A DNA stretch of 64,000 nucleotides from Escherichia phage vB_EcoM_JN03, in the sequence record OR885871. One strand, 5' to 3'. Positions 17,344 through 24,013 of this stretch are shown piece after piece. The position numbers and the translations under genes are program-made. The notes below the pieces were generated by a model. The model had not been told where the DNA came from, made no database searches, and saw nothing but the letters and a program-made list of their open reading frames with translations. Position 1 is the stretch's first letter, and each line of letters starts with the position of its first letter.

Positions 17344-17661
17344 ATGCTTATGTCAAACAAACCAACTTATGTTGAAGTAATGCGTGTTCTGGCTCAGTAC
17401 GCTTGTGACAACCTGAACATGGAAACTTGGCGCAACGGGGATCACAAGGACAAGTTTGATAACATTGATGATAATATCGATGCTTTAGCGCCGTTACGGG
17501 TTAAGAATGATCTCGGCGGTGACGATCTTGACATGATTGAGCTGGTCATGGAAATCGAAGAAGAGTACGATGTAGAAATTAGTGACGAGTGGGTGGGTAA
17601 ACATGGAGATGATCCTACCCTCGGAGAGTTAGCTGAACTCGTCGTTGCCCTGCGCAAGTAA
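17344..17661 (+). CDS. acyl-carrier-protein-like protein lacking the phosphopantetheine-attachment serine
   Basis: DLGGDDLDMIELVMEIEEEYDVEISDE aligns with the ACP core [27 protein letters not shown], but the DSL serine is replaced by Asp. Confidence 0.6.
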   Translation: MLMSNKPTYVEVMRVLAQYACDNLNMETWRNGDHKDKFDNIDDNIDALAPLRVKNDLGGDDLDMIELVMEIEEEYDVEISDEWVGKHGDDPTLGELAELVVALRK

Positions 17662-17667
17662 CTGAAG

Positions 17668-17696
17668 ATCCCCAACGTTTGTTGGGGATTTTTACT
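17668..17696 (+). terminator. terminator hairpin (repeat A, copy 1)
   Basis: ATCCCCAAC-gttt-GTTGGGGAT 9-bp stem followed by TTTTTACTTTT. Confidence 0.6.
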
Positions 17697-17704
17697 TTTA
17701 GGGG

Positions 17705-17733
17705 TTTACTTCTATAAGGCAAATGCGTATTAT
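17705..17733 (+). promoter_or_regulatory. T4-type early promoter (GTTTAC -35, 17-bp spacer, TATTAT -10)
   Basis: GTTTACT at 17704-17710, 17-nt spacer, TATTAT; copy 1 of a repeated cassette. Confidence 0.55.
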
Positions 17734-17782
17734 TGAATTCATCGGGCGGGGCGTTCCCGTTCATTGAAAGAAGGTATATATT

Positions 17783-18023: not shown

Positions 18024-18088
18024 ATCCCAACAAACGTTGGGGATTTTTACTTTTAGGGGTTTACTTCTATAAGGCAAATGCGTATTAT
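18024..18088 (+). repeat. repeat A copy 2: terminator hairpin plus early promoter cassette
   Basis: About 65 bp nearly identical to 17668-17733; stem 18024-18044 with loop gttt flipped to aaac; TTTACT 18060-18065, TATTAT 18083-18088. Confidence 0.6.
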
Positions 18089-18139
18089 TCAATAACTGGC
18101 GAACGATGGGTTCACCAGGTTGAAAGGTAAGATTATATC

Positions 18140-18379: not shown

Positions 18380-18399
18380 TTCTATAACTTAGGGTGGGG

Positions 18400-18438
18400 T
18401 ATGATTACCCCGCCTATTTGAAATGCAGGAACTATACC
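18400..18438 (+). repeat. repeat B copy 1: hairpin plus conserved translation-initiation region
   Basis: GGGGTA-tgat-TACCCC hairpin then CCGCCTATTTGAAATGCAGGAACTA immediately before the ATG; a second copy lies at 18958-18998. Confidence 0.5.
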
Positions 18439-18945
18439 ATGACCGATCAACAAATTCAAGATTTATTTTACCTCGTCCATGATAAGTCCCATATTATGCG
18501 CCCTGGCACTGTTTCTCCTGTCGTCCGTGATCTGGTGCAAGAATTACGCGAACCGCAGATGACCACACTTTATCGTGGGTTGCCTAAAGAGGACGTTGTG
18601 CGTTTAGAGATGATGTTTGAACGAGGCGACATGTTCCAGACATGGGATTCTTGTCTTAGCTTCAGTGAATTGAAGCATGTGGCCAAAAAATTTTCTAAAT
18701 CGTATGGAACCAGAGCTGTTGCTCGCATTTGTTACAAACATCGAAACGGACTCCCAGAGGGGCTTAATGTCTTTGGTTCTCTAGAAAAATTTGTGAACAA
18801 AGACGATGAATCAGAAATGGATATGCTGGACTTGGCGTCCATGGAGAAAGAATGGATATTCTGCCAGCCTCGCGTCTTCCCAGTTTCAAGAAAAATGGCA
18901 ACAGATGGGACGATGGTTTTTACCGTATCACTTATTACTCTATAA
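18439..18945 (+). CDS. hypothetical protein, 168 aa
   Basis: ATG preceded by AGGAA within repeat B; N-terminus MTDQ shared with the next gene. Confidence 0.5.
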   Translation: MTDQQIQDLFYLVHDKSHIMRPGTVSPVVRDLVQELREPQMTTLYRGLPKEDVVRLEMMFERGDMFQTWDSCLSFSELKHVAKKFSKSYGTRAVARICYKHRNGLPEGLNVFGSLEKFVNKDDESEMDMLDLASMEKEWIFCQPRVFPVSRKMATDGTMVFTVSLITL

Positions 18946-18957
18946 ACCCACGGCGGG

Positions 18958-18998
18958 GTATCTTTGCCCCGCCTATTTGAAATGCAGGAACTAATATC
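18958..18998 (+). repeat. repeat B copy 2
   Basis: GGCGGGG-tatcttt-CCCCGCC hairpin then CTATTTGAAATGCAGGAACTA before the ATG at 18999. Confidence 0.5.
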
Positions 18999-19277
18999 AT
19001 GACAGATCAAAGAAGTATTGCTCGTTCGGAAATCAAAGATATTATACAGAGCAAAACCAACGAAACTCATGCTCAATCCAGAATGCTATCTCGATTTGTT
19101 GAAATTAAGTTTGACATTGAAGAGAATAACAATCGGAGAGCGCTGGAGGGAATGTTGGCGATTATCTTGGGCCATGTCACCAATTCAGCATACGACATGG
19201 ATGATTTAACTCGTTTGTTGAACGCCCAGAATAACGTTGGGACTTCTGTTCGCGAATTGCTGTTTAAGTCCGAATGA
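18999..19277 (+). CDS. hypothetical protein, 92 aa
   Basis: Starts MTDQ like the upstream paralogous 5' end; RBS lies within repeat B. Confidence 0.45.
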   Translation: MTDQRSIARSEIKDIIQSKTNETHAQSRMLSRFVEIKFDIEENNNRRALEGMLAIILGHVTNSAYDMDDLTRLLNAQNNVGTSVRELLFKSE

Positions 19278-19314
19278 ACTAACTAAGGGATAACCCTATA
19301 TCCCGAGGTGTGTC

Positions 19315-19764
19315 ATGTTCCTTACATCCTTTATTGACTGGATGAATATCATAAATGGTCTGAGGATCCCTGTTGGGAACCTCGGGCTTTCTCGTTCTTC
19401 TATGCCGCAAATCGATGCCGACAAACAAGAAGATTTTCACAAATATCTTGAAGACAACGGCGTGTCCATAGATGCTGCGCAAGTACCCATCAAAATGCTT
19501 CGTCTTACCCAGAACGAAATCAATAAAATGAAGGTCTGGAAGATTATGAAGCAGATCAGAAATAAGAAGCCCATGGGTCGAGTTTGGGTGTCTTCTGACA
19601 ATTACGTTGTTGACGGGTCTCACCGATTTGTCGCTGCGTTGAACATGGACGGCAAACAGCGCATGAAGGTCTACAAAGTTGATTTGCCAGCGATGGAATT
19701 TGTTAAACTCGCTAAACAGTTTCAGGGTGTGCGATACAGAACGGTCAGCGATACCCGTTTCTGA
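19315..19764 (+). CDS. ParB/Srx-fold (ParB-like nuclease domain) protein
   Basis: LRLTQNEINKM...VVDGSHRFVAA resembles the ParB N-terminal DGxHR motif. Confidence 0.5.
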   Translation: MFLTSFIDWMNIINGLRIPVGNLGLSRSSMPQIDADKQEDFHKYLEDNGVSIDAAQVPIKMLRLTQNEINKMKVWKIMKQIRNKKPMGRVWVSSDNYVVDGSHRFVAALNMDGKQRMKVYKVDLPAMEFVKLAKQFQGVRYRTVSDTRF

Positions 19765-19843
19765 ATACGATAGTTTATTGAAACCCTTTACTCAACATGG
19801 TGACATCCCTATCATTTTATCCAATGAAATAAGGAGAATCACC

Positions 19844-20533
19844 ATGAAACGTTTAATCATCGGGGTTGTGCTGGCTGGTCTGGCACTTCCTGCCACCGCC
19901 AAGCTGAACTCCACAGGTGAAAAACTGTGGTCTGATCTTTCCTACTGTGCTGGGTTCTCCCAAGCTGTTGCTATAGACAAAACTGGTTCCATAGAGAACT
20001 TTGCTGAACTCTGGGCCACAGGTAACGTCACAGATGCCGTTGTAAACGCTGGTATTGAGTTTAATCGATATAAGCAAGGCGCGTTCAACCTGAAAGGATA
20101 TATGAACGACGAAGCATTTAACCGAGGAGGCATGGAGGCGAGCGATCTTATTATGACTGGTCGTATGGACACACAAGGACGAATGACCGTAAGACAGTGC
20201 CGTTCTCTCCCTTCTCCAGCATTACAAAAAGGTGTGCAGGTTGGCCGACGTCAGCTGGACCTCATCAATGATGGAAACCAATGTATCCGAGTATTTGAAT
20301 ATAGCGCTGATCAAGAATCTGATCGAAGACTGAAAAAGGAATGGCGGACTCGCGCCCTTGGCCTGAGAGCATGGCTGGTGGAAAATGATCATTATTATGA
20401 AGACCGTGTTCAGAATGGTTTGAAAGATCTTTCCACTAATTTGTCTGTCAATCTTGATGATCCCAGGCTTGCCCGTGAACTCAAGCAAACAAGAATTGAC
20501 TGTGATAATATGATGAAGGAGAACGAAAGATGA
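19844..20533 (+). CDS. secreted/periplasmic protein with signal peptide, 229 aa
   Basis: AAGGAG RBS; N-terminus MKRLIIGVVLAGLALPATA is a classic signal peptide. Confidence 0.55.
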   Translation: MKRLIIGVVLAGLALPATAKLNSTGEKLWSDLSYCAGFSQAVAIDKTGSIENFAELWATGNVTDAVVNAGIEFNRYKQGAFNLKGYMNDEAFNRGGMEASDLIMTGRMDTQGRMTVRQCRSLPSPALQKGVQVGRRQLDLINDGNQCIRVFEYSADQESDRRLKKEWRTRALGLRAWLVENDHYYEDRVQNGLKDLSTNLSVNLDDPRLARELKQTRIDCDNMMKENER

Positions 20534-20850
20534 AAATCAAAATCTTATTGTTATTCCTGTACACTTTCATGTCTTCCCAAGTATTGGCAGCTCCGGCCAG
20601 TAAGTTGAATATTTGTGCTGCTTGGTTGTCTACATATCAACAATTCCATCCGGATGATAAGGATACATCAATCCTTTTATCTGATTATGAAGGTGAATTG
20701 AAACGCCTTGATCTCTATAGTGTGGACCAGATAGAGAATGCGCTTGATTTACCCATGATGGAATCTGCTGCAGACAACAGCAAACAGACTATTAAAGATT
20801 TGACCATGTGCCGTGAAATTGCAACTAATTTCGTTGGAAATCAAAGATAG
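20530..20850 (+). CDS. small secreted protein with signal peptide, 106 aa
   Basis: ATGA overlap with the upstream gene, GAAGGAG RBS; N-terminus MKIKILLLFLYTFMSSQVLA. Confidence 0.5.
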   Translation: MKIKILLLFLYTFMSSQVLAAPASKLNICAAWLSTYQQFHPDDKDTSILLSDYEGELKRLDLYSVDQIENALDLPMMESAADNSKQTIKDLTMCREIATNFVGNQR

Positions 20851-20899
20851 TTTCAGGTTAAAATTTTATTCCCCATTGAACTGAAAGGTGTATTTCGTG

Positions 20900-21691
20900 A
20901 TGATCATTACCAAAAAGATCGCTGAGGCGATCGTTGAAAAGAATAAAATGTTCGCACCTAGCAAAGCAAAGGTTATTCTGATCCATGATGATGGTCGCGT
21001 GGTCTTCGCTGAAAAATTTGAGCAAGGGTGCGCTTTCTGGTTTGCAGACACTATGCGTGAAAGCAAGCTACAGGGCATCATTTACAAATTAACTCTGGTT
21101 GCCAAGCGCAACGATCAGGGTGACTGGGTTACGGTTTGTGATTTCAGCTCCAAGGTTGATACTCGACCAAAATCTCGCCAAGAGAGAATTCTGGAAGCTC
21201 AGGAAAAACTTGTTGCTGCTCGTACTTCACCAGTCATTAAGCCAGCAGTCATCTCCCCTTCTATTGATCTGCCGCCTGTCAGCCAAAAGGCTGTTGAGCA
21301 ATATGCAGAAAAACGAAAAGAAGAACCCGTGAAGTCTCCAGTTGAGAATAAAGAAGAATCTGAATTTATTTCAATCAGGCAGTTATGTCCGCAAGAAAGA
21401 CGATTTTCTTCACCAAATGATTTATTCGTGTCTTTCCGGTCTAATGGGAAGATTATATTGTGCAAAACCCTACGGGAACAATTGCAGTGGACTAACATCA
21501 ATATGATGGTGAGTCGGAACTTCAAACGATTCGCAATCGGTGAAGGTAAAGATTATCCTGTTAATAAGAGCGGAACATATGCAAATCGTCATATGTGCGA
21601 CAAATTGTCTTTCCCAAACGATTCCGGAACCATCCGCGTTCGTTTAGAATGGGATGAAAGTTTGAACATGTATGTCGGTGATATAAAATAA
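20900..21691 (+). CDS. hypothetical protein, 263 aa
   Basis: ATG with AAAGGTG RBS; no recognisable motifs. Confidence 0.5.
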   Translation: MIITKKIAEAIVEKNKMFAPSKAKVILIHDDGRVVFAEKFEQGCAFWFADTMRESKLQGIIYKLTLVAKRNDQGDWVTVCDFSSKVDTRPKSRQERILEAQEKLVAARTSPVIKPAVISPSIDLPPVSQKAVEQYAEKRKEEPVKSPVENKEESEFISIRQLCPQERRFSSPNDLFVSFRSNGKIILCKTLREQLQWTNINMMVSRNFKRFAIGEGKDYPVNKSGTYANRHMCDKLSFPNDSGTIRVRLEWDESLNMYVGDIK

Positions 21692-21704
21692 TTCAATAAC
21701 ATTA

Positions 21705-21735
21705 GGGCGGTTATTATTAAACCGCCTTTTATTTG
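21705..21735 (+). terminator. rho-independent terminator
   Basis: GGCGGT-loop-ACCGCC hairpin followed by TTTTATTTG. Confidence 0.55.
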
Positions 21736-22418: not shown

Positions 22419-22706
22419 ATGTCCGGCGTATGGTGTGATGTATTGTTGGTAAGATTTTCAAACGGGATGGATAATCAGATCATTTCATTCTTTTATCCTG
22501 TTCCCTTTTCTTCTATGGGTCTGACTGTCAAGCGCGTTCTTGACATAGAAGAAAAACTCAACACGATGCCGTATATGGCGCGACCACACGTGCTGGGTTG
22601 TGAACTGTTAAACGAAATGATGATTGACGAGAATCTTGTTGAAACAATTATCACGCGTGAACAGATGAAAACCATACTGTCTCAGGGAGAACCCCATGTC
22701 GAATAA
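22419..22706 (+). CDS. hypothetical protein, 95 aa
   Basis: GGAGGTG RBS; overlaps the next gene by 11 nt. Confidence 0.4.
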   Translation: MSGVWCDVLLVRFSNGMDNQIISFFYPVPFSSMGLTVKRVLDIEEKLNTMPYMARPHVLGCELLNEMMIDENLVETIITREQMKTILSQGEPHVE

Positions 22707-23016
22707 ACCGTTTGAACTTAAATTTCGCGTTTGGCATATTCCCCAGGTTCCTGGGATCGCTTTTCATGTTGAGGTTCCAACATTTGAAGAAGCGCAGCGC
22801 CTGAAGAATACTCTGGCTGATTACGACCTGTTTCAGTATAACAATAACATCAAGCCGGATTATTGTAATGCTTCCGGCGTTCAAATATACCAACATGATC
22901 TGACTGAAGAAGATCTAAATGATATGGGTCTGGATGATCGTTGGGTTGATATCGAAGATATTGACGAACTCAACGATTATTTTGATCATCTGCGTAGCAC
23001 AGGGTGGGAAATATGA
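22696..23016 (+). CDS. hypothetical acidic protein, 106 aa
   Basis: AGGGAG RBS; ATGA overlap with the downstream membrane-protein gene. Confidence 0.45.
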   Translation: MSNKPFELKFRVWHIPQVPGIAFHVEVPTFEEAQRLKNTLADYDLFQYNNNIKPDYCNASGVQIYQHDLTEEDLNDMGLDDRWVDIEDIDELNDYFDHLRSTGWEI

Positions 23017-23222
23017 TCGGGTTAATCCGTTATCTGTTCATATTCGTAATTTCAACATTCATTTTATTTTTCTTTTTCAAATACTTGAAAGAGACTAAAA
23101 TCTACCGAAGTAAACGTTGGCGTAAACGGGTGAGGGTAACTTTCCTGCTGCTGATTTCTTCGGTTACAATAACTGCACTCACATTGGGTGCTTATATTTA
23201 CATTTTTGAAGGAGTACATTGA
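23013..23222 (+). CDS. small two-helix membrane protein (NfeD-like partner candidate), 69 aa
   Basis: Two hydrophobic segments separated by a basic loop (RSKRWRKRVR); TGATG coupling to the SPFH gene. Confidence 0.5.
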   Translation: MIGLIRYLFIFVISTFILFFFFKYLKETKIYRSKRWRKRVRVTFLLLISSVTITALTLGAYIYIFEGVH

Positions 23223-24013
23223 TGTTCAAGAAACTGGTATTTGGCGCAATTATGGTCCTAGCAGCAAGCATTCTTTCGGGCTGCGGCGGTGTTATCGATG
23301 AAGGAAACGTCGGTGTTCGAACCCAATGGGGTGAAGTGGACATGAACCCTGTAACCGCAGGTATCTACACCAGTTTCGTTTCAAGTGTAGATGTCTATAC
23401 GACTAAAGAAGCCGTCGTGAGTCTGACGAAAATGACGCCAAAGGCCAAAGACAACCTGACCTTGGAAGATCTGGATGTGGATGTTTATTACACACCGAAC
23501 GTCGCAAAGGTTCCGTGGTTCCATACCAAATTTGCAGGTCAGAGCGCTGAACTCGGTGACGGCACGATAGCGGTGGGATTCAACCTGGTTAAAACCGCCG
23601 CAGCATCCTCAACGATGGACGCCGTTTCCTCTTTGGATTCTATGACAATTCACACCCAACGGGCTGAGTTAGAAAAGATGATCAAGGAACGCACCCAGCA
23701 GCAATTGGAAACTGCTGCGCCTGGCATGTTCACAATCACACGTGTGTTGGTGAAAAAGGCGCTGACAGATCCTTCGATTGAGCAATCTATCCGTGATAAT
23801 GTCATGGCCGACAAACGTTTGGATACAGCAAGAAAGAACGTTGAAATTCGCGACCAAGAAGCCAGGGCGAATCAGAAACTGACGACATCTCTGACACCTG
23901 AATATTTACAACACGAATATAACATGGTGTTGCAATCTTGCGCCAACAGCGGGAAATGTACTCTGATTGTTGATGGTTCTGGCTCAAGTAAAATGCTAAA
24001 CGTCGGCAAATAA
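23222..24013 (+). CDS. SPFH/Band-7 (stomatin/prohibitin-like) lipoprotein
   Basis: Signal peptide with lipobox LSGCGG, then GNVGVRTQWGEV and a coiled region typical of the SPFH family. Confidence 0.6.
   Translation: MFKKLVFGAIMVLAASILSGCGGVIDEGNVGVRTQWGEVDMNPVTAGIYTSFVSSVDVYTTKEAVVSLTKMTPKAKDNLTLEDLDVDVYYTPNVAKVPWFHTKFAGQSAELGDGTIAVGFNLVKTAAASSTMDAVSSLDSMTIHTQRAELEKMIKERTQQQLETAAPGMFTITRVLVKKALTDPSIEQSIRDNVMADKRLDTARKNVEIRDQEARANQKLTTSLTPEYLQHEYNMVLQSCANSGKCTLIVDGSGSSKMLNVGK

Follow-up and report, generated by a model that had tools for sequence, protein, structure and literature searches.

Bacteriophage T4 packages Alt and the internal proteins IPI-III in its virion and injects them as effectors, and its Spackle protein (gp61.3) is a periplasmic superinfection-exclusion protein. 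Two-component spanins consist of an i-spanin anchored in the inner membrane and an o-spanin that is an outer-membrane lipoprotein, which together fuse the membranes at lysis. According to a recent survey (PMC12704722), proteins with the ParB fold bind CTP, ATP or GTP, and orphan members often lack Box III; the ParB/Srx domain has been described as a hub domain of polyvalent proteins, occurring solo or fused in phages, with the head-packaged DdrB of P1 as the prototype (Iyer et al. 2017, PMC5512222). Here, we compare these systems with a locus of Escherichia phage vB_EcoM_JN03 (sequence record OR885871), of which a stretch of 64,000 nucleotides (64 kb), hereafter the window, was analysed. Positions 19315-20850 hold a gene for a ParB-like protein of 149 amino acids (aa), followed by two genes, designated A and B, whose products carry N-terminal signal peptides; the open reading frames (ORFs), the DGSHR motif and both signal peptides are all present as described in a first-pass annotation made from the sequence alone.

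We favor, with a probability of about 0.55, the reading that this interval comprises two functionally independent units: (i) a virion-borne, co-injected ParB-fold effector acting on nucleoside triphosphates (NTP) and (ii) a separately promoted pair of periplasmic proteins that is not a spanin. Databases and papers already contain the ParB-fold assignment and the virion association, and, with most pieces already published, the result will be no surprise to specialists; what is added here is the placement of the ParB-like protein in a polyvalent-protein domain family, the separation of the two units and the finding that the spanin annotation of A and B is unsupported.

Separation of the ParB-like gene from genes A and B

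The genes and the signals that delimit them are as follows.

19315..19764, plus strand: ParB-like gene, 149 aa, 17.3 kDa, basic (isoelectric point, pI, 9.9), an ORF with a predicted ParB/Srx (ParB-CTPase) fold
19787..19815, plus strand: candidate σ70-like promoter, TTTACT-N17-TATCAT, 28 nt upstream of gene A, from a consensus scan
19844..20533, plus strand: gene A, 229 aa, comprising a signal peptide and a 210-aa mature predicted periplasmic protein; ATG behind an AGGAG ribosome-binding site
20530..20850, plus strand: gene B, 106 aa, with an acidic mature protein of 86 aa (pI 4.5); ATGA overlap with gene A
21704..21728, plus strand: first strong terminator-like hairpin downstream, a 9-bp stem followed by a T-run, from a hairpin scan

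The three genes of the first-pass annotation are not one unit, as A and B have their own conserved promoter candidate and the ParB-like gene occurs without the pair elsewhere. Such solitary occurrences are found in Pseudomonas phage Cygsa01, Aeromonas phage CC2 and Vibrio phage GR28A, in the last of which the gene follows that for the gp2 DNA-end protector, and linkage of the ParB-like gene to A/B is seen only within the Enterobacterales-infecting Ackermannviridae. The adjacency in Kuttervirus is therefore one of synteny and not of a functional module. A single module in which the ParB-like effector and the exported proteins act jointly would agree with the gene order (ParB-like, A, B), which is conserved from Kuttervirus to Erwinia phage Bue1; however, one product is assigned to the virion or cytoplasm and the other two to the periplasm, the units are separated by a 79-nt spacer with a conserved promoter candidate, and the three phages lacking the pair already largely refute this arrangement, so that we regard it as extremely improbable.

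The promoter candidate stands out both by its rarity and by its conservation. The pattern TTTACT-N17-TATNAT occurs four times in the window compared with 0.04 occurrences expected, and Kuttervirus, Limestonevirus and Agtrevirus share an almost unchanged spacer from the end of the ParB-like gene to gene A, whereas their adjoining coding DNA is only about 75% identical. On the plus strand between 20850 and 21704, no terminator-like site was detected except weak internal hairpins, and the transcription unit, predicted to consist of A, B and a gene for a 267-aa protein, probably ends at the hairpin at 21704. Genes A and B would thus probably constitute an independent, early or middle transcription unit; the timing comes from the consensus scan alone, which counts against this part of our reading, and a literature search for Kuttervirus transcriptome and essentiality datasets gave nothing usable.

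The ParB-like protein: fold, virion association and proposed role

Three motifs of the ParB-like protein are conserved.

19393..19413, plus strand: family-specific N-terminal motif R-x-x-M-P-Q-I, residues 27-33, from conservation in 73 distant homologs
19498..19518, plus strand: LRLTQNE, residues 62-68, Box I/C-motif-like, with invariant Gln66, from position and fold match
19612..19626, plus strand: DGSHR, residues 100-104, Box II/GxxR phosphate-binding P-motif, from conservation

An AlphaFold2 (AF2) model of the 149-aa protein, computed with 21 homologs, had a predicted local distance difference test score (pLDDT) of 82 and a predicted template modeling score (pTM) of 0.76, and the first 40 Foldseek matches to it all belonged to one superfamily, ParB/Srx. 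The best structural matches were orphan ParB-CTPase-fold NTP binders, sulfiredoxin and the serine kinases SerK and SbnI, and a fold search of BFVD returned many phage proteins annotated with a "ParB/Sulfiredoxin domain". Structure prediction and fold search thus bear out the ParB/Srx fold proposed in the first-pass annotation. The check suggested there, a search with the Pfam hidden Markov model (HMM) ParBc (PF02195), gave no match at E<=1 for the protein or for its 21 close relatives. Two further results weigh against the assignment: no Pfam or NCBIfam model matches the 149-aa protein, and PDB sequence searches with single sequences and three profiles found nothing significant, only noise such as von Willebrand factor, the sole exception among these noise matches being an alignment of DGHHRW to PDB 1vk1 at E=0.6.

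The conserved residues agree with the fold. Box II lies within VVDGSHRF (residues 98-105), in which the 73 distant relatives show no variation at D100, G101 and H103 and keep R104 in at least 90% of cases, with a similar picture in the 21 close homologs and a family consensus of DGHHR. Q66 is invariant across relatives of 28-48% identity and 98% conserved in an alignment of 165 domains, and the position of LRLTQNE before a helix, together with the fold match, suggests that this element is equivalent to Box I of ParB. In the N-terminal motif, the same 73 homologs all have R27, P31 and Q32, with M30 conserved to at least 90%, the model confidence there being only about 70. Among PHROGs, the protein falls into phrog_2859 (no assigned function), covering positions 316-467 of that 740-position profile; a marginal match (E=0.0016) was also obtained to PHROG 1033, "ParB-like partition protein". 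It comprises the N-domain only, with no helix-turn-helix, no dimerization domain and no Box III ENLQR after Box II, and is therefore not a partition ParB; no ParA was seen among the annotated neighbors of the gene. The orphan ParB-CTPase-fold NTP binders share this minimal N-domain with a GxxR P-motif and a Box I-like element, and many of them likewise lack Box III (PMC12704722). Unlike these proteins, sulfiredoxin, SerK and SbnI, the 149-aa family has the conserved N-terminal R-x-x-MPQ motif and, by our reading, is virion delivered.

The protein has been reported repeatedly in phage particles. Gp192 of phage Sajous1, which is 100% identical to the window protein, was represented by 11 spectra in purified virions (PMC10892097, Table 6), and in LIMEstone1 an "unknown structural protein" of 17.31 kDa was identified by five unique peptides with 35.6% coverage (PMC3296691, Table 2). 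The LIMEstone1 ortholog, flagged in RefSeq as "confirmed structural protein", has a computed mass of 17.30 kDa, matching the 17.31-kDa virion protein; the unknown structural proteins of LIMEstone1 all have structural counterparts in ViI (PMC3296691), and GenBank labels the orthologs in phages XF4 and rabagast "structural protein". As a virion component, the ParB-like protein would exert any action at DNA entry. It is most likely a virion-borne, co-injected early effector that binds NTP: packaged in the Ackermannviridae particle, it would enter the cell with the DNA and act in the first minutes of infection, binding or hydrolysing NTP, possibly on DNA ends or nicks, thereby protecting or priming the incoming genome or disturbing nucleotide-dependent responses of the host. 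In this respect it resembles Alt and IPI-III, nonstructural proteins in the particle of T4, a related myovirus, that are released with the DNA, and an Alt-like gene located two genes upstream of the ParB-like gene parallels T4 Alt. It differs from them in that the folds are unrelated and neither a T4-type capsid-targeting sequence nor an (L/I)xE cleavage site is evident at its N-terminus.

Several observations speak against packaging: (i) the Sajous1 virion sample also held clearly nonstructural proteins, for example, RegB with 31 spectra (PMC10892097), and presence in mass spectrometry alone is thus no proof of specific packaging; (ii) the gene sits in the early/middle region; and (iii) a promoter scan of the window recognized no late promoter for it, the T4-type late promoter TATAAATA being not enriched in the window and absent near these genes. 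A different explanation is that the 149-aa protein is a ParB-like nuclease made in the infected cell, degrading host or competitor DNA, and that its detection in virions reflects contamination, as the presence of other nonstructural proteins in the Sajous1 preparation would allow. Some ParB/Srx-fold proteins (Osa, ParB-methylase and GmrS) have reported nicking or DNase activity (summarized in PMC5512222), the protein is basic, and PF08857 (ParBc_2, "putative ParB-like nuclease"), the nearest Pfam model, gave matches, all below threshold, in 13 of the 73 relatives. On the other hand, three independent virion proteomes report the protein, with the 35.6% coverage in LIMEstone1 noted above (PMC3296691; PMC10892097), fusions of this ParB-like domain to virion-delivery modules (portal, MuF-like and DarB-like) recur, the conserved residues (the Box I Gln and the GxxR P-motif) are those of NTP binding with no separate nuclease motif, and the fold is now treated as an NTP-binding switch or enzyme (PMC12704722). 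A nuclease activity, as suggested in the first-pass annotation, is possible given that some ParB-fold proteins nick DNA, yet nothing here supports it and neither our analysis nor the literature shows one; we consider the nuclease-and-contamination scenario improbable compared with delivery of an NTP-binding effector by the virion.

The domain belongs to a large family. A profile search of 1.84 billion representatives yielded 4,870 relatives at E<=1e-3, of which 2,275 reached E<=1e-10; in many cases the relative is a single ParB-like domain inside a protein of 800-2,400 aa, the window protein being a stand-alone form. The fusion partners include a Mu-type portal (Portal_Mu) with GNAT and Zeta toxin domains, Zeta toxin or AAA_33 kinases, an AAA ATPase, PHROGs that are head-protease-like and head-morphogenesis (MuF-like), and a cytidyltransferase PHROG; in Ralstonia phage RPZH6, the domain forms the C-terminus of a 1,232-aa "DarB-like antirestriction protein" encoded among virion genes. 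These large architectures match the polyvalent-protein theme of PMC5512222. In one metagenomic relative (P0194), residues 1-51 match the C-terminal end of Pfam Acb1 with 32.4 bits (cutoff, 27), placing a fragment of this phosphodiesterase, which counters the cyclic oligonucleotide-based antiphage signaling system (CBASS), directly ahead of the ParB-like domain; this is a single, possibly truncated example.

The family and the DdrB-like ParB domain (PF18763) share the ParB/Srx superfamily fold, occurrence both solo and within giant multidomain phage proteins near virion genes, and the lack of a ParA partner, and P1 DdrB is head packaged just as the 149-aa protein is found in virions. Membership in the DdrB-like ParB clade by sequence was considered and dropped, as there was no profile link in either direction: P1 DdrB was not detected by hhalign, by family HMMs or by a second-generation HMM from the 165 domains; in the reverse test it gave no match to phrog_2859; and PF18763 (ddrB-ParB) matched only 1 of the 21 close relatives at E=0.073 and none of the 73 at E<=0.01. 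With approximately 4,900 cluster representatives, many of them in polyvalent proteins, this uncharacterized ParB-fold clade is very large, and the 149-aa protein offers a small, tractable model for ParB-fold domains at DNA entry in easily grown phages, such as CBA120 and Det7.

The exported pair and its spanin label

The signal peptides of A and B were assigned from sequence features.

19844-19900, plus strand: gene A signal peptide, residues 1-19, predicted cleavage ATA|KL
20530-20589, plus strand: gene B signal peptide, residues 1-20, predicted cleavage VLA|AP

The start of gene A was taken at the ATG behind AGGAG, the mechanical ORF opening earlier, at a TTG. Both N-termini have an n-region of charge +2 and a hydrophobic core of 12-15 residues (Kyte-Doolittle means over 15 residues of 2.3 for A and 1.9 for B), with small residues at -3 and -1 (ATA|K and VLA|A), and neither window protein has a lipobox or a second hydrophobic segment. 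The clear signal peptides seen in the first-pass annotation are, judged by these features, of the type exported by Sec and cleaved by signal peptidase I (SPase I). The predicted sites are conserved: among 18 representatives of family A, Ala occupies -1 in all and an A-x-A|K site is present in 17, and among 25 representatives of family B, Ala occupies -1 in all and Ala or Val occupies -3 in 22, even though the family B signal peptide itself is variable (17-29 aa; conservation, 0.59 versus 0.83 in the mature part). Protein A has four invariant Cys residues (35, 119, 147 and 220) and protein B has two (29 and 94), and the mature products are expected to be soluble, disulfide-bonded periplasmic proteins. 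Structure prediction lends this expectation no fold support, which tells against it, as the AF2 model of mature A is unusable (pLDDT, 35.6). The notion that the N-domain of A, the C-domain of A, and B are paralogous Cys-bracketed domains was dropped, with hhalign probabilities below 2%.

Both genes are maintained as a pair. The coupling proposed in the first-pass annotation is present as an ATGA start/stop overlap at 20530-20533 and is kept even in the distant Erwinia phage Bue1, in which A consists of the N-terminal domain only. The pair is confined to Ackermannviridae of Enterobacterales, and comparison of A with its Dickeya phage orthologs (75% DNA identity versus 86% protein identity) indicates purifying selection. 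Protein A corresponds to PHROG 4260 (no assigned function), its residues 1-129 also matching the 126-position profile phrog_22078, and neither A nor B is present in the virion proteomes of Sajous1 and LIMEstone1 (PMC10892097; PMC3296691).

Some B orthologs differ in the signal peptide. Those of Shigella phage MK-13 (Agtrevirus; L010, 1887-2201) and of three of the 25 representatives (P0078, P0091 and P0102) carry a lipobox-like motif (LMAGC, LIAGC or ISSC), which lies in the signal peptide, 5' of the conserved AxA site. The (I/M)AGC or SSC in these orthologs implies that some may be lipoproteins, a point that detracts from a uniformly soluble pair; lipid anchoring of B may occur in some lineages, for example, in Agtrevirus and not in Kuttervirus, and would be no conserved property.

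In the databases, the pair carries a lysis function. UniRef, RefSeq and several GenBank records (e.g., rabagast, moki and dinky) name A "i-spanin" and B "putative lipoprotein" or "Rz-like spanin", PMC10892097 (Table 5) lists A and B as spanins in the core genome, and PHROG 3843, "Rz-like spanin", is the B family itself, its 106-position profile being matched end to end; in the annotations of Matapan, Madison and May by the Center for Phage Technology (CPT), both genes are hypothetical. According to these labels, A would be an inner-membrane i-spanin and B an outer-membrane o-spanin, fusing the membranes at lysis. Like λ Rz/Rz1, A and B are adjacent, overlapping genes whose products have N-terminal hydrophobic export signals, which recalls the overlapped spanin architecture; the C-terminal half of A is predicted to be helical in a low-confidence model, and the LIMEstone1 record notes a coiled coil; B of Agtrevirus MK-13 has the lipobox-like MAGC; and this phage family has no other known spanin (PMC6509533).

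The sequences nevertheless do not support the labels, on several grounds: (i) B has no o-spanin lipobox, its first Cys being at residue 29, nine residues past AxA, the lipobox is likewise lacking in 22 of the 25 representatives, and Ala at -1 of the SPase I site is invariant; (ii) the cleavage of A predicted at the conserved AxA|K site would remove its sole hydrophobic segment and, with it, the only possible i-spanin anchor, and the four invariant Cys together with a Gly/Pro-rich N-terminal half argue for a globular protein; (iii) hhalign finds no similarity of A or B to λ Rz or Rz1, and there is no embedded lipoprotein ORF at A/B; (iv) the pair is located in the early/replication region, downstream of a σ70-like promoter candidate and approximately 20 kb from the endolysin by gene order, outside any lysis cassette; and (v) the CPT annotators, who left both genes hypothetical, found no spanins in a Vi01-like phage (PMC6509533). 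A spanin function of A/B is therefore very unlikely in our estimation. Through RefSeq and pharokka, the labels are being passed on to hundreds of phages of Salmonella, E. coli and Klebsiella that are candidates for therapy. Ackermannviridae have neither an identified holin or antiholin nor an identified spanin (PMC6509533; PMC10892097), and the lack of support for the labels leaves outer-membrane disruption and the holin function in this family without an assigned gene.

For the periplasmic pair that we favor instead, the proposed course is that synthesis of A and B would begin early in infection and that Sec export, SPase I cleavage and oxidation would yield soluble disulfide-bonded proteins, which probably work as a complex and would alter the infected cell envelope, with the exclusion of superinfecting phage, as by T4 Spackle, or an adjustment of lysis timing as the possible effect. 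We hold an early periplasmic role in exclusion or lysis control only weakly. Superinfection exclusion, as raised in the first-pass annotation, is a reasonable hypothesis. Protein B and Spackle both have a cleavable signal peptide of approximately 20 aa, a mature part of 75-86 aa, one Cys 7-9 residues after the cleavage site and another 12-16 residues from the C-terminus, and both genes are embedded among replication genes; unlike Spackle, with which it shares no sequence homology, B is always paired with the larger protein A. The exclusion hypothesis is weakened by the search results, in which hhalign aligned only the signal peptides of Spackle and B, a PDB profile search with B found no Spackle, and no homology of A or B to any characterized exclusion protein was detected.

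An alternative within the envelope is that A/B do not exclude phage but form an antiholin-like sensor of lysis timing, in the manner of T4 RI with its periplasmic domain. These T4-like phages have rIIA/rIIB, yet no identified holin or antiholin (PMC6509533; PMC10892097), the pair belongs to the core genome of the family (PMC10892097, Table 5), and both proteins are small and, by prediction, periplasmic and disulfide bonded. T4 RI, however, has an uncleaved signal-anchor-release (SAR) anchor, whereas the signal peptides of A and B are of the classic cleavable kind; the pair has no known partner holin; and A and B match no PHROG, Pfam or NCBIfam entry except their own families, nor does any solved-structure sequence match B, these comparisons not including T4 RI directly. 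On balance, this sensor appears rather unlikely. The boldest reading of the locus, unlikely as we judge it, would make A/B a new Ackermannviridae envelope module, either an exclusion complex or a noncanonical device for lysis or its control, and the ParB-fold protein an injected NTP-sensing or -hydrolysing counterdefense effector, whose domain family is fused elsewhere to Zeta kinases, cytidyltransferase-like domains and, once, an Acb1 fragment.

Gene neighborhood and further observations

The window belongs to a Kuttervirus (Ackermannviridae). Positions 18900-21000 match Salmonella phage SPTD1 at 100% identity and many Kuttervirus genomes (approximately 157 kb) at 92-99%, with 274 phage records matching, and all three genes are kept in approximately 270-420 phage records. 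They are preceded, in order, by genes for the clamp loader, regA, MazG, a vWA protein, ACP and an Alt-like ART protein, and A/B are followed by genes for a P22 gp17-like exclusion protein, a lipoprotein, helicase, RNase H and the late sigma factor, so that the surroundings are those of a T4-like replication/early region. NCBIfam and PADLOC scans gave no relevant match for any of the genes examined, the ParB-like gene included.

Two genes upstream of the ParB-like gene, positions 18394-18945 encode a 183-aa protein that matches PHROG 832, the Alt-like "RNA polymerase ADP-ribosylase", in the C-terminal ART module of that profile (E=1e-16) and has no match in Pfam; it represents a further solo form of a polyvalent-protein hub domain. 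Its real start is probably an ATG near 18439 rather than the GTG at 18394. The gene is flanked by a 49-nt direct repeat (18386-18434 and 18945-18993; 86% identical), in which a GC-rich hairpin (GGCGGGGTAT...CCCCGCC) occurs together with the leader TATTTGAAATGCAGGAACTA, the copies lying directly 5' of two genes whose products both start with MTDQ, the Alt-like ART gene and a 92-aa gene. The repeats may explain a variable slot among Kutterviruses, as Sajous1 has a denV-like glycosylase there. In a 68-nt direct repeat (17671-17738 and 18026-18093; 93% identical), a hairpin resembling a terminator (CCCAAC...GTTGGGG with a T-run) leads into a 29-nt σ70-like promoter that is the same in both copies, TTTACTTCTATAAGGCAAATGCGTATTAT; downstream of each copy lies a small ORF (76 and 79 aa, respectively), an arrangement that resembles a reiterated early-gene cassette boundary.

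Downstream, the same gene block encodes a 106-aa cytoplasmic protein (22696-23016) annotated as "superinfection exclusion protein", P22 gp17-like according to PMC6509533, with no Pfam, NCBIfam or PADLOC match. It is followed by a 69-aa protein (23013-23222) with one N-terminal transmembrane segment and a very basic tail, whose gene overlaps the start of that for a 263-aa lipoprotein (23222-24013) with a classic LSGC lipobox, reported as an SPFH/band-7 lipoprotein with three spectra in virions (PMC10892097). Only four plausible genes in the whole window encode such an N-terminus, and the 69-aa membrane protein and the 263-aa lipoprotein are, together with A and B, its sole convincing envelope-targeted products. 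The large vWA-domain protein, encoded just upstream of the ACP gene (the latter at 17344-17661), has likewise been reported in virions, as ORF108 of LIMEstone1 with six peptides (PMC3296691) and as gp185 of Sajous1 with one spectrum (PMC10892097), and the "early" block may thus encode several particle-associated nonstructural proteins.

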